Assembly (NCBI GenBank): GCA_004431415.1
Contig: QPMI01000398.1
Location: 1 to 64,000 of the forward strand
Reading direction: 5' to 3'
Length of the DNA: 64,000 bases
Origin: Cyanophora paradoxa CCMP329
Taxonomy: Eukaryota > Plantae > Glaucophyta
The notes under the pieces are model-generated. The model saw only the letters and a program-made list of their open reading frames with translations, was not told the origin of the DNA and did not search any database. Of this stretch, positions 26,948 through 60,000 are shown one piece after another (the stretch's first letter is position 1; each line of letters opens with the position of its first letter). The position numbers and the translations under genes are program-made.

Positions 26948-29122
26948 GCCGCGACCGCCGCTGGGGCCGCCGCGACCACCTCCTGGAGCGCCGCCGCCTC
27001 GTCCGAAGCCGCCGCGTCCGCCCCCGCCGCGGCCTCCTGGTCCGCCGCCGTTGGGGTTAGGGCAGTCTCGCATGATGTGGCCCTCCTGTCCGCAGCGAAG
27101 ACACTTGTTGGCCCACTCGCAGTGTGCCGCCAAGTGTCCGAAGACCCCGCAAAGGTAGCAGGTTCGGGGCTGTTGAGTCCGTAGCGCGGCGGTCGGGACG
27201 CCCGTCGACGTCGGGGTGGAATTCGAAGGGGTCAAGCCGAGGCGTGCGTGGAGCTGAGCAACGACTGGGTCGGAGGTGGGCAGGTTGCACAGCTCTGACC
27301 GGTACCAGTGGGTTGTGCAGAGGAGGTAGTCGTCGCCAAAGTGCCAGCAGGCATCCTCCGGGAGGCCAGCCTTCACACAGCGTCCGCAGAGCCAACGTGT
27401 ACCGTTAGGTCGGATGGGCTTGTCGGGGCGTAGAATGTTGAGGCCAGCGAGGAGATCCGTCTTCGTCTGCAGGCGAGGCAGGTTGAAGTTATGGTCGGAG
27501 GGCCGCGTCTGGGGTCGGGTCGAGTTCGCGCTCGAGCCGGCGGGTGGCGGGGCCGTTGCCTGGTAGAGAGGGGCGGTCTGCGGGGCTGTCGCATTCTGGT
27601 AGACGTAAGCGATGTCGGCGTAATTGAACGGGTACTCGGTCTCGTCGTCGTCACCGTAAGCCGTCATGTCCGTCGTAGAGGACTCCGATTCCGTGCCCTG
27701 CGATTCATGGAGAAGGCGGGCCATCGAGATCTGGCCGAGCTGGAACTGAAGTACACGGTCCGAGGCAGCGTTTGCACGGAACATGTTGTCGTACTGTCCG
27801 CCGCAGCAGCCAGGGTGGTGCCGGTGCGTCGACGTCGACGATTGTGAGAGGCGGGACTGGGAGGAGAGCTTGGTGTGCTCGTGCTCGACGTCTTCTTCCT
27901 CGTCATGGTCATGAGCGCGCTGGTCGTGCGTGCGCGCGGCACGGGCGGCCAGCTGCTCGTCGGAGACAGAGGTCGAGGAGTCGAACGTTTCGCACGTGCG
28001 CGCGGCACGGGCGGTCGTCTTCTCGGCGGAGCGGGAAGAGAAGGAGGCTGAGGCGCGCGGGGGAACGGTCGCAGAGCGCCGTGAAACGTCTTTCCACGGG
28101 TAGCGACGAAGGTTCCATGGGATGTCGAGTAGAAAATTCTCCATCGCCTCGTTGCACACCTTGTGGTTATCGAGCTTGTCGTCCGGAGGCTGGTACCTCA
28201 TCGCCGTGTCCTTGAGCGCCGTGAGCGCCTTGCGGGCGTGTTTGTAGTTGTCCCGCTTGGACTGCTGATAGTCGCCGGTGGGGTAGTGGCCGCTGTCCAG
28301 CTCCTTGGCCTCGATCATCTGTTTGATGAGTTCGTACACTTCCATCGGGGTAGGATGGCCTTCCAGCAAGCAGATTGTGCCCGCTCCGACGTAACGAAGT
28401 ACCTTGGACACCATGCTGACCATTGTCGGAAGCGGGTGACCATTGTAGGGCTGAGCGAGGGCATTCTGCGTGCGCATGCGCTCCTGTCGTGTAATGTTGA
28501 TGGCCATCCAGCGTACGAGTGACGGGAATCCTCGGATGCAGTGGTTGCTCTCAATCCGAGCATTGGTCTCCTGTATTTCTTTCTGAAGCTGGTCGCGTCG
28601 CGTCTTGAGGGTGTTGCGATGTTCCCGCGTCTCCTCCGACCGATTCTCCATCTTCCGTCCCTTCTCCTTGATATGTTCAGTGAGCGCTTCGCTTGCCTCG
28701 CGAAGCTCCTCCTTGAGCTTGGCGAGCTTGCGAATGTGCGCGTGCGTGAACTCGATCATGTCATGGGTTGAGGTCTGGTACTGTAATGGGATCGCCTTGG
28801 TCGCCATGGTCGCCGCCGCGAATGCGAGTTTCGAGCCGTCGTCCGCGTCAGAGTAGCGCTTCGTGTCCGAGTCGATTGCGCGTTTGGCGTCGTCTCGCCA
28901 GGCGACGACACCTTGCGGTGTGAGCGGGTTGCCCGGACTGGTGATGTAGATGCCTCCGCCGCAGTCGATGAGGGTGGGCGCCTCCGTATGGGAGAGCGAG
29001 TTGAGGGCGTCGCGTTCTGCCGAAGCGTTGGCGTTGACCGCCGCGACGTCCGTGAGCTCGTGGAGGATGGAGTTGGTGGCCGCGCGCCGGCGTGGCGCGT
29101 CGCCGAAGTTCGTGGGATCCAT
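26948..29122 (-). pseudogene. Retrotransposon Gag-like ORF, 5' part, truncated by the virus insertion
   Basis: Two CCHC knuckles (CYLCGVFGHLAAHC, CLRCGQEGHIMRDC) and an RGG tail. The TIR supplies AAA AAA TGA as a premature stop. Confidence 0.88.
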
Positions 29123-29179
29123 TGTGTCTGCTCGCGGCAGAGACGAGGGACGCCGACGAGGGAGGGAGGCGGGGGCGAT

Positions 29180-29830
29180 GTAGATCTCCGGCCGAGCTTC
29201 CACGCGGGAAGGCCAGCCAAGGTCTGATGTCTCCGGGGCTCGCGGCGTCCGCAGCGCGGCGGAGGCGAGGGGGGGAACCGGGGAGAGGGCGGGGGTGGGG
29301 CGAGGGGGTCGGTTCGAGGCGCTGCACGTAGATCACCGGCCGGGCTTCCGCGCGGGAAGGCCGGCTGCGATCTGAGGTCTCCGCCGAGGCTCACAGCGTC
29401 CGCAGCGAGGCGGAGGCCGGGGAAAGCGCCGAGGGGAGGGCAGGGACGGGCGAGGAGGTCGGTTCGAGGCGCCGCACGTAGATCACCGGCCGGGCTTCCG
29501 CGCGGGAAGGCCGGCTGCGATCTGAGGTCTCCGCCGAGGCTCACAGTGTCCGCAGCGAGGCGGAGGCCGGGGAAAGAGCCGAGGTGAGGGCGGGGACGGC
29601 GCGTGACGGTCGGCACGGCGTCGACGCGCGACGGCGGCCGAGGGAAGGAGTAAAGGGTGCGGGAATTGTCGTCGGCGACAGGCGGTTGTCGGCCGACGGG
29701 CGGGAGTGAGCGGGAGAGGTGATGACGGGAAGGGTCCGAGGAGCCGAGGGCAGATCACCGACCGGGCTTCCACGCGGGAAGGCCGGGTGTGATCGGTAGT
29801 CTCCGGCGATGTTCACGCGTCCGCAGCGCG
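29180..29830. repeat. ~150-bp tandem repeats (about 4 units) upstream of gag
   Basis: AGATCACCGGCCGGGCTTCCGCGCGGGAAGGCCGG-like core recurs at ~29181, 29330, 29480 and 29752. Confidence 0.88.
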
Positions 29831-30647
29831 GCGGAGGCGTGGGCGGGAGAAGGTGGGGCGGGGGAAGTGATCGCGAGGCAGATCCGCAGCTGAACGTCGG
29901 CGACCCACCGGCGAGTCGAAGGGCTGAATCCGCCGGAAATTTTGGCAGAGTCTCCCCCTTCGAAAGGCCGAGAAATGCGCGGCGCTGAAGCGGGCGGCGG
30001 GGCGAGGTCGGTCGGTCGAGGTCGGCCGGTGACGGGCGTGTCCGGTCGACGATCCACCGTTTCCGAGCGTCGTCGATGCCACTAGCAACGATTCCGCGTC
30101 CGGCGTGGGACGGGGGCGTGCCAGTCGATTCCCGCGGACTGCGGATGCAAGAGGCGACTGTTAGCGAGTCCGGCGTCGGCGTGCGGCGGCGGATTCGCAA
30201 TACTGTCCTCCGAAACGCGCTCTCCGTCCACGGGTCGCTTCGCCCAGCGGTCCGACCACGCCTAGCCAAGATGCGGCTGGCAGGTCGGCTGGCTGGACGA
30301 GGCCCGGCGAGGGTCAGATGAGCCTAGTTTACGGTGCTGCTAGGCGTGGCCATGCGTGCTGCGCAGTTCTAACAGGTCGGCGGCAAGAGCGAGCTGAGGT
30401 GGTATTCCAGGAGCAAGCACAAGCACAGGGTACAAGTGTGCCACCCGGGGTGTGGGCCCAGGCGGGGTACATGAAAAGTAGCAGGGGTCCAATCGGCGCA
30501 CTCAACGCGAGCACCGCGGAGACTAAGGCCAAGCGCTGCGAGTAGCGAGACTCGGAGGGCCGGCTCCTGACGGCATAAAGCCGTGAGGCAATATAACGCA
30601 CGTAGATTGTAAATATAAATATAATCAGTGAGCTGTGGGTAGGCTGG

Positions 30648-31433
30648 CTAGGGGACGGGAAGGACGAAGGAGGGGCGGGCGTGGAAGTCTGGGGCCCGCC
30701 CGCAGTGCCGCAGGGCGAAGTACTCCGCGCGCCCCTCTGGCGCCTCCGCCACGACCGCCGTGAGCGAGGCCTGCGCATGAGATTAGATTTGATCAGATCT
30801 AGAGGCGGGCGGGGCGCGGCGGGGCGGGGCGGGCGGGACCTGGAGGGGTCCCTGTGCGAAAGGAGCGTCGAAGGAGCATCGGACGGCGAGCTCCCGGTCG
30901 CCGATGCGCAGCCGGTCGAACCGGATGTCCCGCACCCGCCCCTCCTCCTGCGCGGCCGGCCGCGGGCGGCGCGCGCGCTCTACGATCAGCGCCGAGGCGG
31001 CTGCGCCAGCGTACGGAAAGAAGGGCAGCGGAGGCGCGCCTTCATGGGCTGACTTCTGTAGTGCTCGAATCGGAAAACGTTCCACGCGCCGCTGGGAGAG
31101 ACGTTCAGCTCCCAGTACGCGTCGGAGCCTGCGGGGCCGAAGAACGCTTCCAGGCACGTCGTAGTCCATAGCCCGACGGTGCGCGGTCTCCTGGGCAGCT
31201 CCTCCGGAACGACCAGCCGCTGCAGGTCACCGCTGATCACTGCGAAAAACGTCGCCGCATCAGCGCGTCGCGCGTACGTCGTAGCGTGCGGAAGGCCGCG
31301 GTCGCTACGAACCCCATTCGAAATGAAGTTCAGTGCCGAGACGCTGGACCCGCGCGGACACGTTGAACGGCGACCGGCCGAACGGGGCGAGGTTCACGAG
31401 GGGCGGCAGCTCGGACGAGGTCGGCGCCTCCAT
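30648..31433 (-). CDS. DOMON-like domain protein of a bacterial-type family, multi-exon
   Basis: GLWTTTCLEAFFG...YWELNVSPSGAWNVFRFEHYR and C-terminal YFALRH...PDFH.R.SF. Confidence 0.8.
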
Positions 31434-31636
31434 CCGATGCACGGCAGAGGCCAGTCCAGGGTTTGTGGGAGTAAAAGTTGCAGCTAACTGAGCTAACTCA
31501 GCTAAGCAGCACTGGGGTACAGGCAAACTTGGAGGGAGTGGCGCTGAGGTGGACGCACGTTGGGTCAGCAAGAGACGTAGCTAGCTAGAGAGCGTGTCGG
31601 CGTCGCTTGCCGGCACGCGGGGAGCCCAGGCGCAGC

Positions 31637-34437
<2,801 letters not shown>

Positions 34438-34617
34438 CCCGGCGAGATCTAGCTATAGCTAGATCTAGATCTCTAGAGGACCGTCGACGTCGCTGCTGTA
34501 CTGCACTGCGGCAGCTGTGAGCCTGCATGCGCACTGAGAATCGTGTATCCCGACTCGGAGACTCAAACGTGCTTGGCCAGCGCCCGCGCCACGCAAGCAC
34601 CACATCCCCAAAACGGA

Positions 34618-35792
34618 ATGATTCCAGCAGCAGCGTTCGTCCCGCCGCCGCTGCCCGCCCAGCTCGGCGCGCGGTGGAAGTCGACGACGCGGGCGCTCGG
34701 CAACCGTAGCGAAAGCGCCAACCAGCTCAAGATCGGCGTTAATGGGCCTCAGAAAAGGCCGGAACAGCAGCGGCGCTGGCGGGCGCTTCCTGCGGCGGGC
34801 GTTCAGGTCGTGGCCTCCGCCGCGGGCGGCCATTCCCCGCGATCGGAGGCGGCAGCTACGCCGGATTTCGCTCCCGTCGGGCGCCGCGCGGCGCTCCTGT
34901 CCGCCGCCGCCGCCGCCGCCCTGCAGCTCGCCGCGCCGTTCGCCCCTGCGCGCGCGGCGGCCGCCCCACTCGAGGAGGACTACACGGCGACGCCCTCGGG
35001 ACTGCGGTTCGTGAGCTTCGCGGAGGGCAACGGCGAGGCGCCGGCGGAGGGCCAGGTCGTGGAGATCAAGTACGCCGCCTACTTCCTCAACTACGAGGTG
35101 CGCGGGGCGGCTTTCGGGACCGAGAAAGCTAAGCCGTGGCGATCGGATGTAGCTAGTGCACTGCGCTGGCGCCTAGCTAGACGTAGCGCGCGCGGTTCGA
35201 GCTGAAACGCGCCCCGACCGTGCAGGGCAAGTTCATCGACAAGGTCGCGGGGTACGCCGGTCCCGCCCGCTTTCCTGTACCCCCTTCCTGACGCGGTCCG
35301 CACCCCCAGCGACCAGGAGCCCTTCTCGTTCCGGGTAGGCTCGGGTGACGTCATCCCGGGGCTGGACGAGGCCGTCCGGGGTATGCGACCCGGAGGTGCG
35401 GCGCACCCCCATCCCTTTCCGAACCTCTCCCCTCCGGTTTTTGAGGCTGGTGTACCCCGGCAGCTATCCGGCGGCTGGTGATCCCCGCGGAGCTGGGGTA
35501 CAAGTCGCCGGAGGACGGGCCCAAGCCGCGCAGTGTGCGTGCCCGTACCCCCCTTTCGCCCACTCCACCCTTTCGCCTTGGCAGCCTAGAACTAGAGCCC
35601 GGGCCCCATGGCCGCGCCGCCCCTCTCCATCTCCCCGCCCCATCTCGTAGCCGCCGCTCCCCTCCACCTTCCAACGCCCATACCCCTCTGCAGTTCGGGG
35701 GCCGGCGGCTGGTGGACTACGTGCTGCGGAACCCGCGCGTGGACGCCTCCGTCCTCATGGACGTCGAGCTCGTCCGCGTCCGCAGGGGCTGA
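34618..35792 (+). CDS. FKBP-type PPIase, predicted thylakoid-lumen (transit peptide plus Tat signal), multi-exon
   Basis: MIPAAAFV transit start; VGRRAALL...ARA; TPSGLRF...GNG..P.EGQVV; FRVGSGDVIPGLDEAVRGMRPG; IPAELGY; DVELVRV. Confidence 0.9.
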
Positions 35793-35810
35793 TCATGATG
35801 CGCCCGCCGG

Positions 35811-35913
35811 CGCCTGTATACGAGTTTTCCTTGACATAATTCACTCGCCTGTATACGAGTTTTCCTTGACATAATTCACTCGCCTGTATACGAGTTTTCC
35901 TTGACATAATTCA
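35811..35913. repeat. 35-bp tandem repeat x3, inside an insertion flanked by a duplicated FKBP 3' end
   Basis: CGCCTGTATACGAGTTTTCCTTGACATAATTCACT head to tail; ~35729-35792 recurs at ~35958-36020. Confidence 0.92.
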
Positions 35914-36742
35914 TTTTCCTTGACGACATAATTATAAGCCACTCGTTCTTAGATCTAGAACCCGCGCGTGGACGCCTCCGTCCTCATGGACGTCGAGCTC
36001 GTCCGCGTCCGCAGGGGCTGACGCGCCCGCCGGCCGCGCCCGGGCCCGGAGGGCTGGCTGGGCGACGGGGCTGAGGCGCCCGCCGCGTTTGACGGGCCGG
36101 GCCCCAGGCCCAAGTCTAGTAGCCGGATCAATATTTTAATGGGATCCCGTCCGGGCGCATCTCGGAACGTCGAGCTCCTCAGCGTCCCACAGCCGCGATC
36201 CGCCGATCATGATCATCCGCGCCCCGAGCCCCGCCGGAGCATTGAAATACGCGCCCCAAGTCCAAAGCCTCGGCCCCGCGATCACTGTTGTGCGCAACAA
36301 AAACAACTGGGGCTGAATTGAAAAGTACTCTGAATACAAAGTATAAACAAACAATTGCAAGTACATATCAAGAAATGCAAATACAATTTACTGGGCGCTG
36401 CGGATTAGAAAGATCAGACGTATTACTGGACGCTGCAGATTAGAAAGAGTAGACGCGTCACTGGACGCTGCAGGACTTCTCCTCATCGGCGGTTGGCGGC
36501 GGGAGAGGCGCCGGCAGCGACGCGAACGGCTGTCTCATCGAGCGGCAGCGGTAGCGGCTGTCTCAATCCGTTCGCGGCAGCTCGATGAGACAGCCGTTCG
36601 CGTCGTTGCTGGCGCCAACGTTAACGGCAGTCTGGATTGGAGCGGCAGCAGCCCCCGCTTTGACGGGGCTCCGGTCTGGAGCGGGAGCCCCCCGCGGCCG
36701 CCTCGAGAGAAAGAGAGGAAGATAGGAGAAAGACCAGAGGCG

Positions 36743-38720
36743 TCACTGGACGCTGCAGGACTTCTCTTCCCCCGCGGCCGGCGTCGGCGGCGGGAGGGGC
36801 GCTGGCAGCGACGCGAAGGGCTGCCGAGGCGCCATCAGCTCGAGATGCAGGGCAAGGGGGAGGGCAGCGCCCTCTGACCTTCGTGTTGGCGACGGCGGCG
36901 TCGATGTGGCTGCAGAGGCGCGCGATGCACTCCTCCTGCATGCTGTTGTGGAAGAAGAGGGCGTTGTGGCGCGGGAAGTTCGCCATGTCGGGCGGCAGGC
37001 CGGCCGTCGACGGGAAGCGCTCCTGCGGGTCGTCCACCACCGGGATGATCGCCTGCGTGGATTGCGGCCGGCATAAATACACGATATGGATCTCTCAGGT
37101 CTGCGCGCGCGGTTCACGGGCGCCGCGAGTTCAACTCTGATAGTTTTAGCCATGCAGCGCTGGCTCCGCAGACCTTGCCGAGGTGGCACGCCTCCGCGAT
37201 CTCGCGGCGCACCCTGCGCGCGGCCAGCGGTCAGAGGAGTGGAAAGAGCGACTCGGCCCCCAGCCACAGCCCGTGCACGCACCAGTCCTCGAGCTCCTTG
37301 CAGCGCTCGAGGGTGCCATCAACGAGGATGAAGACTGCGGGGCGGGCTAAGGGAGAGCTATCCACGATCAACGCAGAGCCGGACCGTCGCAGCAGGAGGC
37401 GCGGAGGGATTCGAGGATCTTCGAGTCGAAGACGCCGCCCTGCAGCGACCGCACGTCGAAGAAGACCTTGTAGCTGTCGGAGAAAGTCCAGGCGTGAGCC
37501 TCGGAGAGAAGTGGGGCGAGTTCGAAGGCGGACCCGTGGCTCTCGAGGGCCTTGCAGAAGAGAGAGGCGAGGTAGTTCTTGCCCCCCATCCGCCGGTACG
37601 TGATGCTGCGCCCTGTTAGCGAGCTCATCTAACAGCTTACGTCAGGTGGATGCGCACAAGACGTGGTACTCGTAGCCGGGAGGGAGGGGCGGGACGCGCG
37701 AAGCGGGGCCGTAGCCGGGCGCTGCACCGTAACCCGGCGTGGGGCTGTAGCCAGGAGCTTGGCCGTACCCAGGCCCGGGGCCGTAGGCTGGGGGCGGGTG
37801 GCGGAGATGTGGCCGCCGCGGAGGGCGGCGATCTCGGCGAGGAGGCGGTGGCGGGCGCCAAAGTGCGGGACGCCCATCCGCTCGAGCTCGCCGTCGCCCA
37901 GGGCGAGGAGGGCGACGCCGTTCGTGTAGCGGAAGGCCCCCGCGAACCTGCTCCCGCCTCAGGTTTCCGGAGGGGTTCGGGGTTTCTCCTCAGGCAGTGC
38001 TGAGCGGGGCGGCGCGGCGCACTCGGCGATCTGGCCGCGGGAGCGGACCCACGCGACGACGTCCTCCTCGCTCCAGGAGCGCACGTCGCCAGCCGGGGGG
38101 GGCCGCGGGGGCGCCGGCCCGGGCGCCTGCTGGGGGCGCGCTGCGGGGCGGGCTCGCGTCGGGGGAAGGGAAGCACGGGCGGGGGTACACGGACTGGGAG
38201 CTGGAGCGGCCGAGGCGGCGGGCGGGGCGGGGCGCGGGGCGGGGGCGGCCTGCGGTGGCTGGGTGAGGGGCGCGGCCGCGGGGGCGGGGCGGCGGGGCGC
38301 ACCACGGGGGCGGGGGCGTGGGCGGGGAGGGAGCGGAGGTAGGGCACGACGGCGGCGCACTGGGCTCTACCACCAAACGGCGCGGCGGACGGGCTCGGGC
38401 CACGAGTCCACGACGGGGTTGCCGTGCACCCTCAGCTCCTGCAGGGCGGCGAGGCGGCCGATCTCCGGTGGCAGCGCCGTCAGCCGGTTGCGAGCCATCC
38501 ATAGCACCTCCAGGTTCGGCCCCCTTGTCAGCTTGGCGAGCATCGACAATATGCGCCTGCCCGCGCCAAATGCGCGCACCTTCGTTCTCTTGTACAGAAG
38601 ACGACGTCAGAACTCTGGACGTTCCCCGATTACCGGTCAATCTTCGACCGTGCCCGTGCTGCCTGCAATGTCGCTCAATATCAGCGATTGTAGCCGAATG
38701 AGCGCGAACGATCGAGCCTA
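36743..38720 (-). CDS. LRR-SAM-TIR protein with a SARM1-like TIR domain and C-terminal CaaX (5' end uncertain; apparent frameshift near 38375)
   Basis: Spliced translation. LRR: LEVLWMARNRLTALPPEIGRLAALQELRVHGNP. SAM: WSEEDVVAWV...NGVALLAL...LERMGV...RHRLLAEI. TIR: YHVFITYRR...LASL...VFFDVRSLQGGVFDSKILES...DWVRREI...IIPV...LPPDM. Ends SCSVQ*. Confidence 0.82.
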
Positions 38721-41700
38721 GCAGCTGAGAGAAGCTGCGGCTTCGCGCACCTTCTCCGACCGATACTGGGGTACGGTCGCACCTATCGCCTCGTGGTCGA
38801 CGGCGGCTAATATCCAGCAGTTTGGAGGACGCAGAGAGCGCACGCCTGCTAGATCAAGACAGATCTATCTAGACAGCCTGTTTGCCCGCGATGGCGAGCG
38901 ATCGATGGCGTAGGGCCGAGCGCTGCCCATGGCCAGCCCGCGCTCGGGTATGCGTAGCTTACGCGCCTCCATGCCGCGGCCGACGCGCCTCCCGACTCAG
39001 AAATCGCGAAGGTAGACTCGCGCGAGAGATACTCGAGCGCCGGCCCGGGGCGGCCTTGGCTTGGCAGGCGGCGGCGGCGGCGGCGGCGGCGGAGGCGGTT
39101 TGCCAGCGCCGGGCGCTTTTCCTCGCCCAATGTGCATGGCCTGGCCTCCTCGCCTCGCCTCCTCCCCACGCCGGCCTCTTCCTTCCCCGGGGCCCAGCCC
39201 ATTGCAGTCGGGCTCCGCCGCCCGTCCGCCGGAGAATACCTCGCGATCGAGGGCCTCCCGCGCGCCCGGCGCCGGCCCGACTCCCTGTTCCGGAGCTCGC
39301 GGATCAGATTTTGAGGTGAAAAGGCAGTGGAGAGCACTAGGCGTGCCCGCGGAAGCGGGCGGTGTCCCATCTAGCCGTCCCGGAGAGCGCGGCGCGCGCC
39401 GACACGGACTGTCGCTCGGCGCCCTGCGCCGCCCGCCGGAGGCCCCGCCCGGCCGTCGCTCCGCCCCGCCCCGCCTCCGCGGCCCGCCGTCTCGGCCGCT
39501 CCATCTTCCCCGACAGCGAGAGCGCCGGCGAGGTGCGCGCCGTATCTATGCCGGGGTGCGCGGTACCCCTTCCCTCAAAAGCGCCTGTTAAGCTCCTCCC
39601 CCCTCCCCCCCCTCCTTCCCCCCCCCCCCCCCCCCCCACCTCCCCCCCTCACCCCCTATAGCTAGGGCCCCGACCCCGCCGGCCCGCGAGGTGCGCGCAT
39701 TTATGCGCCCGGAGAACCGAAGCACCGAAGCACGCCTAGCGCCTCTGCCACGCCCGGCCGCCCCGAGGGCCGTACCCCCGCCCCGCCCCGCCCCGCCCCC
39801 TCAGCCCCCTTGGCCCCGCCCCCGCCGCTGACTCGGCCCGCCATCTCGGGTGGCCCTGTCCTCGGCCGTTCCTTCCCTCTCCTCGGCCTCTGCCGTCCCG
39901 CTCCCCGCCGGCGCCCTCCGCCCCGCCTCCGGATCCAAGGCTGGGGCCTTGGTCCTCCCAAGGCTGGGCCGGCTACTAGGCTGGGCCTGACGGGGCCAAG
40001 CCGGCGGACAGGGGGCCGAGTGGGACGCCTCCCCAGTACCCGCGCCCCGCTCCCCGCCCCCCGTCGCCCGCTCCGAGGCTCCCGGAGTCCCTCCTCTCGT
40101 TTCCGGCCCCGGTCCGGCCAGGCCCCGCCCCGCCCCGCCCCGCCCCGCCCTTCAAGGCTCTTGCGCTTAGAGCTCCCCTGGGCCTCGTGAAAGGCGGCCG
40201 GCGCCGGCGCCGGCGCCGCGCCTCCCAGGCTCGGCCCGCCTTCGAATTCCCCTGCGGCGGGCCGGGGCCCCATGGGCCAGCTAGCTCGGTGAGCCGCGCC
40301 CCGCCTCCCCCCTCCTCCTCTCGCAACGGCCGCGGCCCCGCCCCGTCGACGTCACTCCAGACTAGAAAGCTCCAGACTAGCTCCCGGCCTGGCGGCCCTA
40401 TAGCCCTATAGCCCTGTACCCCCGTACTACTGTATTCTCAGTCTACCTGTACCCCTCAATATACCACCTTGCCAGCTATTAGGCCATCATGGCATCGATA
40501 TCTAGCCTGACAACAGTAATAGCTGCACTACTAGGCCTAGGCTATAGCTAGGCCCTGACCCTCAGGGCCTGAGGCCTGCGCATGCCACTCCAAGTCCTGA
40601 CCACATCATTGAGTCACAAGAATTCAGGATTCTAAAGTGATCATGAGGATACATTATGACCTGTACGTATACAGACAGGCGTCAATAGTGTAACTACGCC
40701 GTGACGAGTGCTAGTACTGATCATCGGGTCATGAGCTACTAGGATTAGATCTCCCCCCGGCCCCGCCTCACTGAGTCAAGCTCTCCGCGGCTGGCCGACG
40801 GGGCCCCCGCCCCGGCCGCGGGCCTCCGAGGCTCGAGGACCGTCGGACCTTGAAAACCTCTATGCTGCGCTCCAGCGGGAAGGGTGCTCAGCGGCTTATT
40901 AGACGCTCAAGATCAAGCTCACAGGCTCACTGAGTCAGGAAACTATTAGTATAAGCTACTAAAACCAATTGTCACAGTGTTTCATGATCAGGCGCTCAGG
41001 GTCCGCCTTCGGGGGCGGGCGCCGGCGCCCCCTCTGCCGCAGCCGCTGAGCCGCCGCCTCAGCCCCGAGGACCTCGACGCTGCGCTCAGTGACGTACGAG
41101 CTTTAGGTCCCTTCTCGAGGCAAATCGCCACCTGACTAACAACTATAACTAATTTCTAATTGATTCATGATTAAGCGTTCAGGGTCCGCTCCCCGGGCCC
41201 GGGGGCGGGAGCCCCCTCCTCGGCCCCGAGGACCTCGACGCTGTGCTCGAGGGGGAAGCCGGCCCCGTCGACCCGCGCCCGCACCGCCAGCTGCAGGAGC
41301 GCGGGGCGCACCCCGGGTCCCCGCAGCGCCGCCGCGCGCGCCGCGACCGAGGCCGAGGCCGCCTCGTAGGCCGCGCGCCCCTGCGGGAACCGCCATCCTC
41401 CCCTCCTCCTCCCCTCCCCCCTCATCGTCCGAGGAGGAGGAGCTTGAGGGCCCGAGGGGGCAGCGGGCGACGCGGCGGAGGCCCGAGGGGTCCCCGAGGA
41501 GGCCGCGAGCGCCGCCGGCCGCAGGAGGGCCCTCAGCGGCGGCGGGTGCGGCGCCCCATCGCCGCCCGAAGGATCGCTATCGCTCAGCAGCGCCTGCGCG
41601 GGCGCAGAGTCGGCGCGGAGGGTGGGGTGGGGGCGGGAGTTTCGGAGCTCATTTTTTGGACTCTCGAGTTCAGGGGAGGAGGGAGGAGACCGGGGGAGAA

Positions 41701-42599
41701 ACTAGGCTCTAGTTCTGAGCTCAAAGCTTATGTTTGTTTTAGAGCTGTGAGCTCGAAAAGCGCGCACGAAGGCGGGGCGGAACTCCCACCGAACCGCCTC
41801 CTCGGCGCTGAGGGGCGGGGGGCACGCCCCGCAGCCGTAGATCCCCTGCGACCGAAGTCACCGAGTCAGCGGTGGTTGGAGGGGATAAGGCGTAGAGAAG
41901 TAGCCTAAGGGGGCTGAGGTGTGTGCGTACCTCGGGGCAGGGCTCGACGGCGCGGCCGCAGCGGGGGCAGGCCGCGCGGACGGCCCGGTACGCCGCCGGT
42001 ACCCCTCATCGTCCACGCCGAAGCCTGCGCGGGGGGGGGGGGGGGGGGGGGGGGGGGGATCAAGAAGGGGTCCGGCGTTCAGGGAGGGGAACGCGCGCAC
42101 CGTCGCCGGTCCAGGGTACGTCGTCAGGCAGGCGGAGAAAGGAAACCAGGGCGGGTACGCGGACGAGGCCGGACGGGGGCAGCGCGGCAAGGGAGGGGTA
42201 CTCGACGAAGGGAGGGGGGCCGAAGGCGGCGACGAGGCGGGCGGCGGCGGGGTCGGCGGGCGAGAGGGGCGCCGCGGCAGTCCGGGGGGTACAATGCAGG
42301 TGCGGCCGCCCCGCCGGGAGGTGAGGGTCCCTGCGCTTTCCCTCGGCGGGGGGCAGGGGAGGGGAGGGGAGGAAGCGGGCGGGCAGTACGCGCGCTCGGC
42401 ACTGGAGGTACTGGAGCTCGACGAGGGTACCCGGGCACAGGAGGGGGAGAAGCCGAGCCACGCCCTCCTCCCACCTGCGCGCCGTCCGATGAGCATAGAG
42501 GGGGGGACACGGGAAGCGGGGGGAGGCAGGTGGAGGGGGGGCGGGGGGTACAGGTGGAGGCAGACGGGCCGGTCGGGGTATCGGCGACGACCACAGTCA

Positions 42600-44270
42600 C
42601 GCGGAGCCGCCTGCGGCGGCCGCTCTGGCCGGATGCCGGCGGAGGGCCTGCGGCAGGCGCGGCGCGGCTGCGCAGGTCACCGGAGGGAAGGGCGAGGGGA
42701 GGGGAAGGGACGGGGTACCGAGGACGCGGACGCGGACGTGGAGGAGGGTATCGGGCTGGAGGGCGGCCAGGGAGGGGGCGAAGTCGACGGGGCCGCGGGG
42801 CGGCGGGCGGGGGCGCGGGGGCCGGCGGCGGCCGCAGGAGGGGCGCGTGGTGCTCGGCGGCCCACGTTGCAAGCCCGTCGACAACCTGCGAACGAAGTCA
42901 AGCCGGGAGGGCGCCCGGACATTCGACGACAACGAGCCTCGGGGTCAGGCGGCGGGTGCAGCGGCCGGCCGTACGGCTCCGGGGCTCGCTCGGGGCCCGT
43001 CCGCAGCCTCCGGAGGACCCTCGCGTCCGAGGCCCGACCTGCGGCCCGCGCTCGCCACGCGCTGAGGGGGGTACACGGCACGAGCACGCGCCCACGTTGC
43101 CTGTGACCTGAGGGCGCGGGTCAGGTGAGATCCGCCAGGCGCGGCGCCCCCGCCCCCCGCACCTGGCCCTGCCACTCCTTCAGAGCCACGCTGAAGACCT
43201 GGAGCACGTCGCCGGGCCACAGGCGCTGCGCCCAGGCCGCTCCCGCCCGCCAGAACGTCAGCTGCGGCGGGCGCGGCGTCAGCGTGGCGCGCGCGGGGGG
43301 AACGGTCTCCCGGGGGAACGGACGCGGAGGCGTTCGCCGGACCGGTCCGCGACGATGACGTTGGACGTGGAGACGTGCTCCGAGCCGCAGAGGACCGCTT
43401 GCTCGGGGAAGATCTGAGAGGAGCGTTCGCCCGGCGGACGGGCGGACGGGCGGGCGGTGGCGCGGGCGGCGGGCGGGAGCGCGGGTGGGGCGCGGGGCGT
43501 GCCTGCATGACCACACCGAGGACCGCGGCTTGCTCTCCCGCCCGCAGGTCCGCGAGCGTACGAGGCCGCTTCGCCGCCGGCGGCGTCGCCCCCGCGGGCC
43601 CCACCGGCCGCTTCGCCCCGGCGGCGGCGCCGGGGGCGCCGGGGGCGGAAGCGGGGCCGGCCGGCGGGCCCGAGCGGCTCCTCTCCGGCGTGGTGACGGT
43701 GCACGCACGGCGGCGCGGGCCGCCGGGAGGCTGCAGCTGGACGCGCGGGCGGGCGGAGGCGCGGAGAGAGGCTCCGGCTCCGGCGGCGGGCCGGGCGGCG
43801 GCTCCGCCGGTGGCTCTGGTGCTGCTGCAGCAGCAGCGGCCGCTGCGGCGATGTCGTACTCCTCCAAAAGGCGGAGCGAGAGCTCCTGCAAGGCCTCGTA
43901 CTCCTCCGCGTCGCTGTCGCGCGGCGGCGCCGCCTCCTGCTCCGCCGCACGGGCGGCGGCGGGCGACCGCGCCGGCGACGGCAGCCGCCGCGCCGGCGAA
44001 CTCTCTCGCGCAGGCGACGCCGGCAGCGAGCCGCCGCTGCATCCGCTGGGCCGACGCCGGGCCGCGCGTGGGTTCCAGGATCGAGCGCTTTCGCGTCTCC
44101 CGCCTCGACCCAGGATCGCCGGGGTGCTCGTCGTCGGGAGAGACGGGTCCAGCTCCAGTTCGAGCTCGCCTGCGCCGCCCTGGTCGCCCTCGTCGGCTGC
44201 TCAGCTATCCCGAGCTCAAAGCGAGCCGAGCAATGAACGACCCGCTGGCCGCCCTCACCTGCGCCACCTA
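42600..44270 (-). pseudogene. Diverged duplicate of the OB-fold gene region (partner ~46110..47800)
   Basis: Same exons (TLADLRAGEQ, VIVADRSGE, LTFWRAGAAWA) with indels and no matching ATG. Confidence 0.65.
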
Positions 44271-45034
44271 CCTCCGCTGGGCGGCGAGTGACGCCGAGGT
44301 AACGGCGAGGTTGCAGAGGGGGGCACCCTAATTTCGCGGCGTCATCTCCGCTGCGAGTGAAGCCCACGTGCACGGCGAGCTGTCTCGTTGGTCTCAAGCA
44401 CTCCTGGAAGATCTCTCAGCGCCGCGCGGCCCCCGCAGCCGCCCTGCTCTCCACAAACTTGTCCCCGTGCGAGCCCGCCGAGCCTCGTTGAGCCAGCCGA
44501 GTCTTCCCAGAAGCCAACTCCCCAAACACCAGGCCGCTGAACTTCTGCCCCCCGCGTGCTCCACATGCTTCGTGCCTCCGTTGCACTTGTCAACTGCAGC
44601 CGCGTGCACGTGGTGCGCTCACGGCTCGAGTTGAGAATGACGCCTTTGCACAACTTGGTCCCCAAACGCATCGCATCTGCACAGCCCGCATCTTCAACTG
44701 CAACCTTGCGTGACTGTGAGCTCCCCAATGCCCATTCCTGGCCTTCGAATTGAGTTTGCAAGCCTTTTTCCACGATGTTTAATGTTAGCATGCAGATGGT
44801 GAAATCGTGGGCTCGTTGCGCAAGGCCCTCGCCTGCAAGGACCCAAATGAGCGAGCGCTTCTGGTGGCTGTGGTGCTCTTTATATCGATTGCCCGCTTCG
44901 GCCTTTTCGGGCGGCGGTATGCTTAAACAGAACTCTGCAGTCTCTTGAACAAGTGGTTCACTTCTCCAACCGCGAGGTTCTGCAAGCAATCAGCAGCTCG
45001 AACTCTCAGCTGATGAACGAGGTGCGGTGCTTTC

Positions 45035-45290
45035 CACGCGTTGTGCGCGAGACACGGCTAAGCTCCGAAACCAGATTGGCAAGACAAAGAATGAGATGGG
45101 GGAGATGCGGGTCGAGGTGAGATGTTTTGACCGCTTTGTGCAGATGAGGGACACGGCTAAGCTCTAAGCCAGATGGGAACGATGAAGAACGAGTTGGAGG
45201 GCGGGTGAGATGCTTTGACCGCGTTGTTCGCGGGCGGGACACGGCTAATCAGCAAGCCAGATGGGAAACATGAAGAACGATGTGGAATGG
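45035..45290. repeat. Degenerate ~90-100-bp tandem repeat x3
   Basis: GACACGGCTAA...CCAGAT(T/G)GG...GGTGAGATG.TTTGACCGC recurs. Confidence 0.75.
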
Positions 45291-46299
45291 ATCTCCAGCG
45301 GATTCAAGGTTCGAGACTTGCTTTTATGCTCGTTTCGTCCAGTCCAAGCTGACGAGTGCATGCCAGATACTGCTTGGTGCAGTGACCTTGCTCGGCGTCG
45401 GCGCCATCGGCACGACTGCGCAGTCGTGCGTTTCTGTTCATTGCTTACTTTCTTTTTTTTGTCTTCTGAGTCGGTCGCGCATACAGCGTTCTCGATTGGA
45501 TTCGCTCCTTAATGCGATCATAAGCTCTGCTCCACCCCTCTTTTCTTTCTTCTCCGCTTCGTGTTTTGGGAGCCTGGACAAAGTGACGAGATCTAGGCCT
45601 GCGAGCGCTCGTTCGAAGGACCGGAAGGTCTTGGAGCTTCTGGTGGGTAATGCAATGCACTGGACCTGCACTTGTGCAGTTGTATTGTAGCAAAATTTGC
45701 AATTGTGAGGTTGTATAGTAGCAAGGGATCTTGAGCTTGCATTCGATATTCGCAGCTTGTTTAGTATTCGGATCGAACATGCAATATAATTGCAATACAT
45801 GAACATGCAGCGTTCAGGGAATTCGAAGGGGTACGAGCGCGCCGTCGCAAGATCACGGTACGTTCTCGGGCAGCTGCATGCAGGCGGATCCGGAGGAAGG
45901 ATATGAGTCGCGGGCGGAAACACGGGCGAGGCCAGACGGGCGCAATGCGGCGAGGAGGGGTACTCGATGAAGGAAGGGGCCAGAGGGCGGCGAGGTGGGC
46001 GACGGCAAGGTCGATGGGCGAGAGAGCACGGGGAAGGGGGGACCGGTGGAGGTACAAGGCCCTTTCGGGGCTATCGGCGACAATCTCAGTCACTGAGTCA
46101 CACGGAGCCACTTACGGTGTCCGCTCTGGCCGGACTCCGGTGGATGGGCCTGCAGCGGGCTGCCAGGCGCGGTGCGGCTGCACGGGTCACGGGAGGGCAG
46201 GGGAATGGCAGGTGGAAGACGGGGGAGAGGGGGGGGGGAGGGGAGGGGGGGGTACCGAGGACGCGGACGCGGACGTGGAGGAGGGTATCGGGCTGGAGG

Positions 46300-47722
46300 G
46301 CGGCCAGGGAGGGGGCAAATTCGACGGCGCCGCGGGGCGGCGGGCGGGGGCGCGGGGGGCCGGCGGCGGGCCGCAGGTGGGGCGCGTGGTGCTCGGCGGC
46401 CCACGTTGCAAGCCCGTCGACAATCTGCGAACGAAGTCAAGCCGGGAGGGCGCCCGGACGTTCGACGGCAACGAGCCTCAGGGTCAGGCGGCGGGTGCAG
46501 CGGCCGGCCGTACGGCTCCGGGGCTCGCTCGGGGCCCGTCCGGAGCCTCCTTAGGACCCGCGCGTCCGAGGCCCGACCTGCCGCCCGCGCTCGCCACGCG
46601 CGCGGGCGCGCCGCGGTGAGGGGGGTACATGACACGAGCACGCGCCCACGTTGCCTGTGACCTGAGGGCACGGGTCAGGTGAGATCCGCCAGGCGCGGCG
46701 CCCCCGCCCCCCGCACCTGGCCCTGCCACTCCTTCAGAGCCACGCTGAAGACCTGGAGCACGTCGCCGGGCCACAGGCGCTGCGCCCAGGCCGCTCCCGC
46801 CCGCCAGAACGTCAGCTGCGGCGGGCGCGGCGTCGGCTTGCAATTGGCGCGGGGGGAACGGTCTCCCGGGGGGAACGGACGTGGAGGCGTTCGCCCGACC
46901 GGTCCGCCACGATGACGTTCGACGTGGAGATGTGCTCCGAGCCGCAGAGGACCGCTTGCTCGGGGAAGATCTGAGAGGAGCGTTCGCCCGGCGGGCGGGC
47001 GGGGGCGGGCGTGGGGCGTGCCTGCATGACCACCCCGAGGACCTCGGCTTGCTCCCCCGCCCGCAGGTCCGCGAGCGTACGAGGCCGCTTCGCCGGCGGC
47101 GGCGGCGCCCCCGCGGGCCCCGCGGGCCGTTTCGCCCCGGCGGCGGCGGCGCCGGGTGTGGAAGCGGGGCCCGCCGGCGGGCCCGAGCGGCTCCTCTCCG
47201 GCGTTGCGACGGTGCACGGCACGGTGGCGCGGGCCGCCGAGAGGCTGCAGCTGGACGCGCGGGCGGGCGGAGGCGCGGAGAGAGGCTCCGGCTCCGGCGG
47301 CGGCCGGGCGGCGGCTCCGCCGGTGGCTCTGGTGCTGCTGCAGCAGCAGCGGCCGCTGCGGCGAGGTCGTACTCCTCCAAAAGGCGGAGCGAGAGCTCCT
47401 GCAAGGCCTCGTACTCCTCCGCGTCGCTGTCGCGCGGCGGCGCCGCCTCCTGCTCCGCCGCACGGGCGGCGGCGGGCGACCGCGCCGGCGACGGCAGCCG
47501 CCGCGCCGGCGAACTCTCTCGCGCAGGCGACGCCGGCAGCGAGCCGCCCGCTGCATCCGCTGGGCCGATGCAGGGCCGCGCGTGGGTTCCAGGATCGAGC
47601 GCTTTCGCGTCTCCCGTCTCGACGCCAGGATCGCCGGGGTGCTCGTCGTCGGGGAGCGACGGGTCCAGCTCCAGTTCGAGCTCGCCCGCGCCGCCCTGGT
47701 CGCCATCGTCGGCTGGCGCCAT
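46300..47722 (-). CDS. OB-fold (ssDNA-binding type) protein with an acidic/Pro-rich N-terminus, multi-exon (3' end uncertain)
   Basis: TLADLRAGEQAEVLGVVMQ|IFPEQ...NVIVADRSGERLH|LTFWRAGAAWAQRLWPGDVLQVFSVALKEWQGQ fits an RPA1/SOSS-B/SHLD2-type OB fold. Confidence 0.65.
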
Positions 47723-47899
47723 CCGATGATCCTCTCCTCTGCCCCGAGCTCGAGCTCAAACCGAGACGCGTTGTAGATCGCTCGCTGGCCGCCCTGAGCC
47801 GCGCCAAGCCATCTTTCCGATCAATAGTAGCCTGCGCTCGCCAGCGAACCTGGCGAGCCGTGAACGTGAACCTGGGGGGGAAGAGGAACAGGGGGCACA

Positions 47900-49330
47900 C
47901 CAATTCCGCTTGCATCGTCTCCGCTGCGGTCGATCCAGCACGGCGCGGGCGTCTCCTTGGTTCTACGCGCTTCAGCGGTGTCCCTTGCGAATTTGCGCGC
48001 CAACAGTTTCGCGCCGCAGGCGCCGGCTGGCCCAGCGCGCGCGGCAGCCTTCCAATGGGCGCTGGTTTCGGCCACAGCGCCGTGGCAGCGCTCCCGGACC
48101 AGGGCTTCGGCCAACACGCGTTTCTCGGGTTCGGCCTTGTGAAGAACCGCGTGAGCGTCGACGACCTCGTGGACCTCACACGAACGCTCGATGGTATGCT
48201 TTGCGCGCGAACAAGGCTGCGCGTACGCGCGCTCGTGCTGACCGCCGGTGCAGCTGGAGACGTCGTGCTGCAGAGCTGGTACGACAGCACCGATGCCATG
48301 GCTGCGCAGCGTTCCCGCTGGACGTGCGCGCCGGGCCCGGTTCCTCTTCCTCGTTGCTTTCTCAGCGCTAGCCGGGGGCTGTGCTCGAGCTGACCCCGCG
48401 TCCTGCAGGCACGTCGCCCTCGTGTACAAGCGCGATGGCGTGCACTGCCGATCCATCGACAAGTGGAACGAGGAGAACGCAAAGGGGACCGAGGCGCGCG
48501 TGCCGCACTCCGTTCCGATCCGTCCGCTTTTACACGTTGACCGATCGAGTCCGGGGATATCTATGCGGCAGGTGGACGAGGTGTGTATGATGGAGGCATG
48601 GCTACGCGACCCCGGGGACGTCCCCCCTCCCTGCGACAGTCCGCCGCGCCGCGCCCCAGCCGCAGCCGCGCCCCGTACGTACCCCCCAGCTCACTCGAGC
48701 TCCGCGCGGCTCGGAGCGCAGACATGAACCTCACTCCACGTGCGCGTGCGCGTGCGCGTGCCGCGAGCCGCCGGGCGGTGCCGGCCGCGGCGCCGTCTTT
48801 CTGACGGCTCCGAAACGCAGTACCCCTCCGGACGCGCCAGTACCTCGTTCCCGATGGCAAGGGGCCCCTCGCGATGGGTGTTCGCCGCCTGTTGGCGCGC
48901 GTGTACCCTTTACCCAGCCCCCTTCCCCCCTCCCCCCCCGGCCCCCCCTCCCCCCACCCCTTCCTCCCCCTTCTCCACTTCCTGAGCAATCGATCTGACT
49001 GAGGTCTGACTCAGAACGTGGAAAGGACCCCGGAATTCCGCCGGAAATTGGAGGCGTTCTGGCACGAGGTCGGGCTGCCCGAACGCTCCGCACATCGTAC
49101 CCCCGTCTCCCCCACATTTTCGCAGGTAAAAGACCGGAGGTACGAGACGGACTGGTGGGAGAAGGCGAAGAGCGCCCTGGACATGGCGGACGCCCCGGGG
49201 TACGCGTACGCGGTTCAAAGGGGGTTACGATGTATATCTGAGCTCGGGGTACGTCCGGCAGGTCGGCGCCGGACCCCGGGCGGAGGCACGTGCTCCGGTG
49301 GTCCCAGAACATGGCCAGCGAGCGGGAGCT
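47900..49330 (+). CDS. Multi-exon host gene of unknown function (limits approximate)
   Basis: Coding-like exons between GT..CAG introns, e.g. HVALVYKRDGVHCRSIDKWNEENAKG and VKDRRYETDWWEKAKSALDM. Confidence 0.4.
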
Positions 49331-50988: not shown

Positions 50989-53783
<2,795 letters not shown>

Positions 53784-56079: not shown

Positions 56080-57099
56080 TCACTGGACGCTGCAGGACTT
56101 CTCTTCCCCGCGGCCGGCGTCGGCGGCGGGAGGGGCGCTGGCAGCGACGCGAAGGGCTGCCGAGGCGCCATCAGCTCGAGATGCAGGGCAAGGGGAGGGC
56201 AGCGCCCTCTGACCTTCGTGTTGGCGACGGCGGCGTCGATGTGGCTGCAGAGGCGCGCGATGCACTCCTCCTGCATGCTGTTGTGGAAGAAGAGGGCGTT
56301 GTGGCGCGGGAAGTTCGCCATGTCGGGCGGCAGGCCGGCCGTCGACGGGAAGCGCTCCTGCGGGTCGTCCACCACCGGGATGATCGCCTGCGTGGATTGC
56401 GGCCGGCATAAATACACGATATGGATCTCTCAGGTCTGCGCGCGCGGTTCACGGGCGCCGCGAGTTCAACTCTGATAGTTTTAGCCATGCAGCGCTGGCT
56501 CCGCAGACCTTGCCGAGGTGGCACGCCTCCGCGATCTCGCGGCGCACCCTGCGCGCGGCCAGCGGTCAGAGGAGTGGAAAGAGCGACTCGGCCCCCAGCC
56601 ACAGCCCGTGCACGCACCAGTCCTCGAGCTCCTTGCAGCGCTCGAGGGTGCCATCAACGAGGATGAAGACTGCGGGGCGGGCTAAGGGAGAGCTATCCAC
56701 GATCAACGCAGAGCCGGACCGTCGCAGCAGGAGGCGCGGAGGGATTCGAGGATCTTCGAGTCGAAGACGCCGCCCTGCAGCGACCGCACGTCTAAGAAGA
56801 CCTTGTAGCTGTCGGAGAAAGTCCAGGCGTGAGCCTCGGAGAGAAGTGGGGCGAGTTCGAAGGCGGACCCGTGGCTCTCGAGGGCCTTGCAGAAGAGAGA
56901 GGCGAGGTAGTTCTTGCCCCCCATCCGCCGGTACGTGATGCTGCGCCCTGTTAGCGAGCTCATCTAACAGCTTACGTCAGGTGGATGCACACAAGACGTG
57001 GTACTCGTAGCCGGGAGGGAGGGGCGGGACGCGCGAAGCGGGGCCGTAGCCGGGCGCTGCACCGTAACCCGGCGTGGGGCTGTAGCCAGGAGCTTGGCC
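56080..57099 (-). pseudogene. TIR-CaaX-only remnant of the LRR-SAM-TIR gene
   Basis: All TIR exons are present; SAM and LRR are replaced by the LINE from 57100. Confidence 0.8.
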
Positions 57100-60000
57100 T
57101 TATTCAATGAATTCGCACACACCGAGACAATACGGCTAATGATAGAACTGAGGTGTCCGTAAAGTGTCAAGTCGAAAGATGAGCCTACTGGTTACGCCGG
57201 GTAGGGAACCTAACAGCCATCGGACAGGGTGGAGCTAGTCAAGGAGACGTAAACTAAAGCAAAGCTAACCCAGAGCAGAGAGCTACTACCTATACATCTA
57301 GCCTAGCTTAGGACTAGGCTACAGAGAGGACTACCCAGGGGTCTACGAGTGCTGCCTGCTAGTGCTGCCTGCCTAGGGACCGTCGGGACGTCCGGAGCTC
57401 GCGGGCTGTTCTACTGTACGGTAGGAAAGCCAGGACGGACCCGCGGTCTAATCTGCCTACTCTCGACGCGGCCGCGACTACAGTTAGCGCGGCGGGCTCC
57501 GCGTCGAGGGGCCGCTCGCCCGAAGCGCGGGTGGAAGCACGTCGGCGTAGAGGGGCCGAGGGAATGAGGCGAGGGGGACGTTGCGGGGAAGAAGTGGGGC
57601 GGGACGGAGAAGGTCGGCGCCGGCCGTGGCGGGGAGGGGAGGGTCGGATTTCTCGGTCAGCAGGGCTTCCAGCCTCGAACCAGCCGCCGCACCCCCGCCG
57701 CGGGCAATTGCGAGCCCCCTCCGCGGCGGTCCTTCAACCCACGGTCCTGGCACGATGGCCGGGGTATCTGGTGGGTGCAACGACCAGCCGAAGCCTTCCG
57801 CCAAGCCTTCCGGTCCATCGTTCCCTCCCTGTCGAGGCGCGAGGAGCGTTGGCGAGGTCGTGAGTGGGAGGCAGGGCCAAGAGAGCGAGCAGGAGGGCAG
57901 AACGGAGAGGGAGGCAAGGCAGGCGCTCGCTTGGGCGGGGCCCAGCGAGTCGGACGGGGCGGCTATATCTAGTGTGTGCGAGGCTAAGAGTAGAGCAGGG
58001 AAGTTTCTCGAGGACTAGGTATGGTGAAGTAGTAGGTAGGTGGTGTCGAGAGTCTCCTCCCGACGTAGCCCCCCCCCCCCCCCCCCCCCTTTCGCGCGAC
58101 TCGGGGTACCGTTTAGAGCGGGCTAGGATGTGGCTCCCAAGGGCGTACCTTGACGCAATCGTAGAGCTCTTGGGCGCGGAGCGCCGCCTTCCAGCCCGCG
58201 TACTCCGGTGGGCAGTCTGCGTTCCGAGCGGCGTTGAGTAGATTGTGAAGGCGAATCGGCCCGTCGCAGGCGGCGCAGACTTCCTTACAGGTCCGGGGGC
58301 CGCGGGCCCGCTCTCGGGCGCGGGCGCCCGTGCGGGGCGGGCGCGGTCGCTTCTTTGAGGCCTGGGAGACGCGGCAGTCGCGTTCCCACTCCGCGTTGAT
58401 TTCGCAGCGACGTGACCAGAGGCGTCGGGCCCGCTCCAGAAGCGTCTGCCGAACGCGTTTAGCTGCGCGTGCCGCGTACCGGGGTGCAAGGTTCAGGCAG
58501 CGTGCGAGGGCGCTTTCTAGACTCTGCGGAGCAAGGCCCTGGAGCACCCAGAGGCGCGGGTACGCGTACGGCCTACCATCGTAGCTGCGCGCCTCGGCGT
58601 CGTCGTCCGCGACGCGGAGGAAGATTGGGACCAGGTCGGGGGCAAGGAGGGCTCCTGCTGGCGGCGCTGTGAGTCCGTGGGCCTCTCTGTATGCGCAGAG
58701 CAGAAGTCGGTTCAGTTCGCGAGCAGTCTCCGCGCGGTGCGCGACCGCATGCGGACCCGGGCACAGGAAGACGTGCGGGAAAGTTTCAGTCGGGCCTGCG
58801 GTAAGAGCCGTCGGTGCCCGGTTCGGGCGGCTGGGGCCCGCTGCTGGTTGGGCATGCGAGGCCTCTGGTGCAGTCTGGCTGTTCTGTGAGGCTGTCGGGC
58901 CGCTAGTCTCTGCACGAGGGAAAGGCGTTCTGGTGGCGCAGCCCGCACAGCGTCCCCCAGGGTTGCAGGCGGCGTAGAGTTCCTTCTGGTCACGTACCCG
59001 GACTTCGTTCGCTGGTAGCGAGCTACAGAGCAGCTGCGTCCGAAACTTGAATAGCGCGTTGCGGGCTCCATTGGCGCCTTGGAATCGGGAGCCTACGCTC
59101 GTTTCCGCATATAGCCCTGCTATGTCTGCGCCGTCGGCGCCTCGGCGCAGGAGCGCGCCAGCCAGCGGTTGTTGGGTCCAGGCAAAGTGCGTCTGGTGCT
59201 CGTGAAGTGCGTCCATGTGTGCCTTGGGGTCCCCTTCCACCCGTCGTGTGCGCCCGTCGGGTCGCTGATGGTGAGCACCGCAGGCATGCTGAAGGCCGGC
59301 GGCAGAAAGAGAGGTTCATGCCGGTTTTCGTCCGCCAGATCCAGGTCGGCCGCCACGTTCGCTCCGGCGTCCGCGATGTCGTTGTGGGGGTCGCGGGCGT
59401 CGCCCTTCGCGTGCGCTTTGACTTTGACGAGTTTGAGCGGCCGCCCGCGCTCCTCTAGCATTGTCCTGAGCTTGCTCCATGCGTACAGTTCCGCGGAGCA
59501 GGCGTGCCGGATGTATTCCCGCGGGCTGCGGCAGCTCGCGTGCTGGACGAAATCGGAATACCAGCGGATCGCGTTCATGTTGTCGACGTGTAGAACCGCT
59601 CCGAAAGGCGAGAGCAGGTCAGCCATGAGCACCGCCTGGAGTTCCGCCTTGTTGATCTCCTGCAGGCCCCGGAGCCGGGCAAAGAAGTCCGTGAGGATAC
59701 CCGGCGGGTGCAGGCTTGCGCCAGTTCTGAGGTCCGTTTCCGGCCAGTGTACTGCGTAGCCCGCGCGAGCGTTAACCGTCTGGCCCTCTTTCAGGCTCCC
59801 GTCCGTCCAGGCGTACGCTGGGGCGTCGGCCACGTATGAGCCGCCGGACGCCGCCTCGGCCTCCAGGTGCTCTTTGCGGTAGCGGGCTTCGAGGCCCTTC
59901 CAGGTCTCCAGGTATGCAACCCAACTGTACGGATCGGCCTGATAGTAATATAGCTCGCGCGCCTCCTTGTTGGAGCTGACCGGGGCGCTTCATCTTGCGG

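Follow-up and report, generated by a model that had tools for sequence, protein, structure and literature searches.

A SARM1-type TIR domain in an apparently undescribed LRR-SAM-TIR family of Cyanophora paradoxa, and a probably damaged member of this family

A minus-strand gene with short introns, located in the region 36743..38720 of a contig of the glaucophyte Cyanophora paradoxa (the window, 64,000 nucleotides in length), raises the question of whether this alga encodes a SARM1-like NADase receptor provided with its own sensor module. A previous sequence-only reading had described the locus as an LRR-SAM-TIR-CaaX gene, i.e., a membrane-anchored sensor, oligomeriser and candidate NADase, lying near endogenous viruses. 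Among the three lineages with primary plastids are the glaucophytes, for which no described immune receptor was found in the literature searched.

Our comparison indicates that the locus is a transcribed and spliced gene. The run search listed 14 runs of DNA type, with more than 90% of the sampled words, and 6 presumed RNA runs, with 24-38% of them; out of 24 listed runs, contigs of 7 distinct runs were compared with the locus. Seven introns were reached by RNA-type contigs, belonging to three studies, and all of these were supported; for six of them the GT-AG joints were present in RNA-type contigs and absent from the DNA run (Table 1), in agreement with the short introns previously proposed. 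As RNA contigs cannot separate near-identical gene copies, expression is established for the copy group rather than for the single locus; one such copy, P0006, is found on another contig. The public gene model of the locus is P0001 (g9984), whose protein was obtained from EukProt. When a single ORF spanning an intron was used as query, five proteins were retrieved, all of them EukProt entries for Cyanophora paradoxa, an alga whose public assembly is reported as PacBio-based (PMC6704402).

Table 1. Coordinates of the features identified in the window.
Feature	Position	Strand	Evidence or remark
Introns with RNA joints	37214-37282, 37335-37384, 37474-37533, 37606-37657, 37948-38022, 38508-38579	minus	GT-AG joints in RNA-type contigs
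Last exon, CSVQ-stop (CaaX box)	36743..36820	minus	split contig in X19
Last intron	36821-36878	minus	split contig in X19
TIR domain, SARM1 structural type, five introns inside	36891..37674	minus	Pfam TIR_2 E 1.4e-7; SARM1 TIR E 1.8e-20
Intron	37053-37173	minus	loose contig ends
Glu codon, equivalent to SARM1 E642	37201..37203	minus	alignment with SARM1
One base missing from assembly	37795..37796	.	extra base in every run compared
Single SAM domain	37821..38090	minus	Pfam SAM_1 E 6.8e-6 on P0001
Intron splitting SAM	37948-38022	minus	joint in X16, X17 and X20; split contig in X19
C-cap end and Pro/Ala linker; predicted introns at 38250-38302 and 38141-38194	38091..38366	minus	agrees with gene model P0001
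Frameshift in LRR C-cap, stop in LRR frame	38367..38379	minus	stop at 38367-38369
LRR remnant: one full 23-aa repeat and start of capping repeat	38378..38540	minus	Pfam LRR_4 E 8.3e-6
72-nt GT-AG intron	38508..38579	minus	joint in X17 only
5' exon, transcribed, in-frame stops, without family homology	38580..38634	minus	X17 contig 38576-38634 joined to LRR exon
Diverged last-exon duplicate in 3' region, in-frame CSVQ-stop again	36442..36532	minus	
Partial second copy, restricted to TIR and CaaX (P0002, public model g9991)	56083..57102	minus	inside 7.1-kb duplication

The TIR peptides, the one SAM domain and the catalytic Glu codon quoted by the sequence-only reading were all recovered on the minus strand, and its CSVQ-stop end was found to be created by splicing of the last intron, as supported by a split contig. 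At the opposite end of the gene, splicing out of 38508..38579, as observed in the X17 contig, removes the ATG at 38543 that is the start of the public gene model, and the exon at 38580..38634 is probably an untranslated leader. Among the contigs of the 7 runs, no RNA contig links the LRR to the SAM and none covers 38142-38257, within the linker (74-94% G+C); since the DNA run also drops there, this gap is evidence for neither side.

The reading frame of the assembled sequence is broken at two places, of which the sequence-only reading had reported one. The jump that it missed, between SAM and TIR, is an assembly error: an extra base behind 37795 was present in 7/7 distinct runs (8 comparisons, X17 being compared twice). 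Without this base, SAM and TIR are read in different frames, and with it the translation from the SAM to the end of the gene equals P0006 at 286/287 residues, the remaining one being an unknown codon. Other single bases present in reads and not in the assembly were observed at positions 36108, 36651 and 39417.

The break between LRR and SAM, previously read as an apparent +1 frameshift, was confirmed as a break, and its extent fits a deletion. The C-cap gap comprises 10 bases at the locus versus 7-18 residues in 17 paralogue caps, and the comparison points to a likely loss of at least 11 bases (about 20 relative to P0010/P0030). A random one-base assembly error was considered as the source and judged unlikely; no listed contig spans 38367..38379 and no read indel is listed at the site. 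Further upstream, family homology ends at 38540. The presence of LRR sequence was borne out, with one full repeat and a capping repeat in place of the multiple repeats announced, and an N-cap, searched for in 38400-50000, was not found there. The interval 38580-38720 is not recognisable as LRR sequence, and its stop codons are real, given that DNA contigs over 38460-39059 differ nowhere. We consider it likely that the copy at 36743..38720 is a damaged family member that has lost the N-cap and most of its repeats and is out of frame before the SAM, and such a copy likely yields no working sensor. Counting against damage are its undisturbed, spliced SAM-TIR-CaaX frame and an intron, 38360-38429, by which each of the public models (P0001 and P0006) bypasses the frameshift.

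According to sequence and fold comparisons, the TIR domain is of the SARM1 structural type. All PDB sequence matches (19/19) corresponded to SARM1 or TIR-1, the best at 76.4 bits, and the comparison with TIR_2 and SARM1 that had been suggested for this domain gave a match to each (Table 1). A predicted model built from 70 sequences (pLDDT 85) superposes on the SARM1 TIR with TM 0.87 and rmsd 1.5 Å, ahead of all other TIRs. The equivalents of SARM1 Y568, R569, D594, G601, C629, W638 and E642 are kept, and those of S567, E596, K597, D627, K628, H640, H685 and E686 are changed; mutation of several of the kept residues lowers the activity of SARM1 (PMC8266388). The catalytic Glu equivalent is invariant in the 70-row alignment, and the whole predicted NAD pocket, Glu included, is kept in 60/60 outside homologues. 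From these sequence features, we infer that the domain may act as a NADase.

Regarding its relatives, the TIR query retrieved at least 150 library representatives at 80.8 bits or more, comprising 9 from Cyanophora and at least 141 others at 81-125 bits, versus 76 bits for SARM1. A SAM or LRR profile match was found in 0/145 outside proteins, and Pfam SAM or LRR in 0/44 scanned; among the 10 outside homologues with source checked, metagenomic sources were seen, and the one organism-named cluster was Bacteroidales. In a quick tree without SARM1 or atlas sequences, integrated by 18 domains from Cyanophora and the 60 best outside matches (P0001, P0002, P0005 and P0007 being excluded as near-duplicates), 12 Cyanophora TIRs formed one clade with SH-aLRT 99. 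The nearest Atlas clusters were animal SAM-TIR proteins (0.93-0.94). An Atlas row of giant-virus TIRs (0.84) was also observed, a lead only. The same TIR clade occurs in other contexts in P0012, P0033 and P0035: accompanied by WW domains, combined with a ZZ finger plus SAM, or preceded by a probable membrane segment that has an extracellular part.

The paralogue survey that had been proposed revealed at least 30 Cyanophora records, obtained through three protein searches and a representative search, a count that is a lower bound; 17/30 were confirmed by accession and the others share the gene-name scheme. These paralogues are gene predictions, several of them plainly mis-modelled. The LRR module was present in 25/30 records and the SAM in 12/30, and LRR, SAM and SARM1-type TIR were combined in 9 gene models, including P0009, a complete LRR-SAM-TIR-CSVQ model. 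The sensor-oligomeriser layout first proposed for the locus thus holds for the family, not for this copy, in which most of the sensor is lost and which is probably out of frame. The LRR module is constituted by an N-cap, a variable number of 23-residue repeats and a C-cap, and it is also joined to either of two further TIR types, in these cases without a SAM, or to a RING with a coiled region. Members lie in tandem groups, as judged by gene numbers on the same contigs. In Pfam scans and precomputed domains, no NB-ARC/NACHT ATPase was found in the family. A single-sequence structure model of full-length P0009 was useless (pLDDT 45).

Among 68 internal repeats of 19 proteins (P0001, P0005, P0007 and P0018 being excluded), positions 3, 5, 7 and 8 displayed 2.7-3.1 bits, and position 2 displayed 2.2 bits, versus 0.5-1.8 bits at positions 10, 12, 13, 16, 20, 22 and 23; these values cover the positions left free, as 11/23 are fixed by the search pattern. 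Four exposed positions per repeat are hypervariable on a near-constant scaffold, which is not proof of immunity. At the other end of the proteins, CSVQ was kept in 6/30 Cyanophora records, on two TIR types, versus 0/158 other stored proteins. P0004 and P0019, which have no CaaX, start with a Gly-2/Ser-6 pattern of the kind that serves as an N-myristoylation signal. The CSVQ end fits the pattern Cys-a-a-X with X being Ala, Met, Ser or Gln, its first "a" being Ser and not aliphatic; Gln as X directs farnesylation (PMC9141697). Separately, P0008 (tig00020553_g10559) reads SAM-TIR-TIR-CSVQ, its second TIR having Gln at the catalytic position, and it carries one intact and one probably dead TIR in a single chain. 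The family was not described in the literature searched (full text; subscription journals mostly not covered), in line with an architecture that the first reading did not recognise, and the main text of the genome paper does not contain TIR, LRR or Toll (PMC6704402). The receptor-like family is apparently undescribed.

The surroundings of the locus include, at about 3422-26947, a low-GC element that has inverted ends and codes for a fibre protein, a patatin, a B-family polymerase and an A32 ATPase. It corresponds to a Polinton-like element nested in an LTR retrotransposon whose LTRs (520-1453 and 28448-29381) are 99.6% identical. It ends 9.8 kb from the LRR-SAM-TIR gene; the distance of about 10 kb previously given was accurate, and the region examined (1500-29500) contains one such element, not several endogenous viruses. 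A functional link between gene and element was considered and rejected, as there is no evidence for it and proximity shows nothing. Polinton-like elements have already been reported in Cyanophora paradoxa (PMC12220804); this one also has a gene for a 1772-aa protein, which contains internal repeats and, at its C-terminus, an S74 chaperone.

The window further contains a 7.1-kb direct duplication (30646-37767 versus 50003-57102, 99.0% identity), and the junction of its end was seen as a loose end in the DNA run X2. Within it lie genes for a protein kinase and for an FKBP-like protein (the latter named by eye), together with the TIR-CaaX half of the LRR-SAM-TIR gene, and many differences between the duplicates are single-base C or G gaps, typical of long-read error. 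A minus-strand element (57103-64000) truncates the second copy; the ORF fragments of this element resemble LINE reverse transcriptase and RNase H by eye. For two convergent genes at 35729-36616, the final codons are repeated downstream of each; a 35-nt triple repeat and a 44-nt inverted repeat lie in between. A tandem pair, 42538-44199 and 46030-47715, is 88.6% identical, and one of its ORFs has a weak Shieldin SHLD2 OB-fold match (E 0.0027).

With the integration of these findings, we lean towards a model in which the intact family members are membrane-tethered intracellular non-self sensors that cleave NAD+, the copy at this locus being a damaged member. Farnesylation of the CSVQ cysteine would hold the protein on the membrane, where the concave LRR face would bind a foreign or damage ligand; binding would then cause clustering, and the single SAM would drive head-to-tail assembly. 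The TIRs aligned in this manner would cleave NAD+, leading to NAD+ loss and cell death, or to an ADP-ribose-type signal. Such a design would lack both the NLR nucleotide-binding switch and the ARM domain of SARM1, whose ARM-SAM-SAM-TIR logic has been described elsewhere (PMC8494770; PMC8266388). A broader and more doubtful proposal is that C. paradoxa has built an intracellular immune repertoire of its own, which diversifies and does not rely on an NLR switch. In it, hypervariable LRR sensors would be equipped with exchangeable effectors, a SAM and a bacterial-type TIR on a farnesyl anchor would rebuild the SARM1 design independently, and sensorless copies, such as the one at this locus, would serve as shared amplifiers. 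If true, variable LRR sensors wired to TIR enzymes would add a third way of achieving TIR immunity to those of plant NLRs and animal SARM1. Testing would be cheap, given the short domains, the named Glu and the cultured alga, with P0009 rather than the damaged copy as the right subject.

Two alternatives to this model are both improbable in our judgement. One of them concerns the locus itself, which may be functional as a nearly sensorless SAM-TIR-CaaX subunit, with intron 38360-38429 restoring the frame, and would serve as an amplifier bound to the membrane, assembling together with intact sensors via the shared SAM. The clean frame, spliced in runs from three studies, the near-identical second copy P0006, and P0008 as another SAM-TIR-CSVQ model without LRR are in its favour; however, no RNA joint was found for the intron, its donor is weak, without the +5 G present in 8/8 RNA-supported donors, the annotated ATG lies inside the RNA-supported intron 38508-38579, and without intron 38360-38429 the SAM frame has no ATG upstream of the SAM. 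Damage remains, then, our preferred reading of this copy. The other alternative accepts that the family binds variable ligands, with the TIR being a non-catalytic scaffold, or with the pathway signalling outside immunity, for example in the sensing of stress or contact. This would sit poorly with a predicted NAD pocket and Glu kept clade-wide (60/60 outside homologues), and with a family that has recently expanded in tandem, varies in repeat number and swaps effectors, traits that are typical of immune receptors. Nevertheless, a conserved Glu in a TIR does not always mean activity (PMC7075850), the BB-loop and EE-loop motifs are unlike those of SARM1, and few protist TIRs were active in a screen of Glu-bearing TIRs, in which cyclic ADPR was detectable from 4/29 TIRs of non-animal unicellular eukaryotes (10.64898/2026.04.20.719644). 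We still favour NAD+-cleaving sensors for the intact members.

The likeness to SARM1/TIR-1 comprises the TIR subtype and fold, the catalytic Glu and a SAM preceding the TIR, and might suggest a true SARM1 orthologue sensing the NMN/NAD+ ratio, as would the PDB and fold matches and the animal SAM-TIR Atlas clusters. However, the Pfam scan revealed LRR, SAM and TIR only, with no ARM/HEAT domain, and one SAM stretch in place of the two tandem SAM domains of SARM1. The BB-loop reads RSLQGG and the EE-loop NSMQ, versus the SARM1 signatures E(R/K)LEAG and H(D/E)YQ (PMC7075850), and the family differs as well by its C-terminal CaaX. In addition, the match to SARM1 is surpassed by those to at least 141 non-Cyanophora representatives, and the family is multi-copy, while SARM1 is typically single-copy (PMC7075850). 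The lack of an ARM domain, the one SAM and the changed motifs place the gene outside SARM1 orthologues, and we regard orthology as extremely unlikely; the term "SARM1-like" given to it earlier is justified for the TIR subtype, but neither for descent nor for regulation.

By eye, the TIR is of the same sequence type as clade 8 of a TIR atlas, which includes bacterial and protist SARM1-like TIRs (Culbertson et al. 2026, PMC13142454). Since that clade contains single-SAM proteins of Paramoeba and Paraphysomonas, SAM-TIR outside animals was already known; LRR is listed in 0/52 rows inspected of its 85, and glaucophytes are unnamed in the accessible portion of it. In the downsampled table of the atlas, 0/9 Cyanophora rows belong to the family, and Cyanophora is absent from the available atlas text (PMC13142454). 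Dictyostelium TirC, shown to be a toxic NADase (PMC13142454), offers another case of a bacterial-type TIR taken up by a unicellular eukaryote; it is related to TIR-STING and has no LRR, SAM or CaaX. A TIR-LRR combination has been reported in two bacteria (PMC7145615). The family resembles plant TIR-NB-LRR proteins in having an intracellular LRR sensor, a Glu-bearing TIR and tandem clusters, and differs from them by the lack of NB-ARC, the reversed order with the LRR first, another TIR clade, and an assembly that would proceed via the SAM. Finally, the LRR-ROCO proteins of brown algae, for which four selected concave sites have been reported, share with the family the 23-residue repeats, four variable concave positions and a variable repeat number (PMC11378527); their effector is Roc-COR, whereas that of the Cyanophora family is SAM-TIR, TIR or RING.
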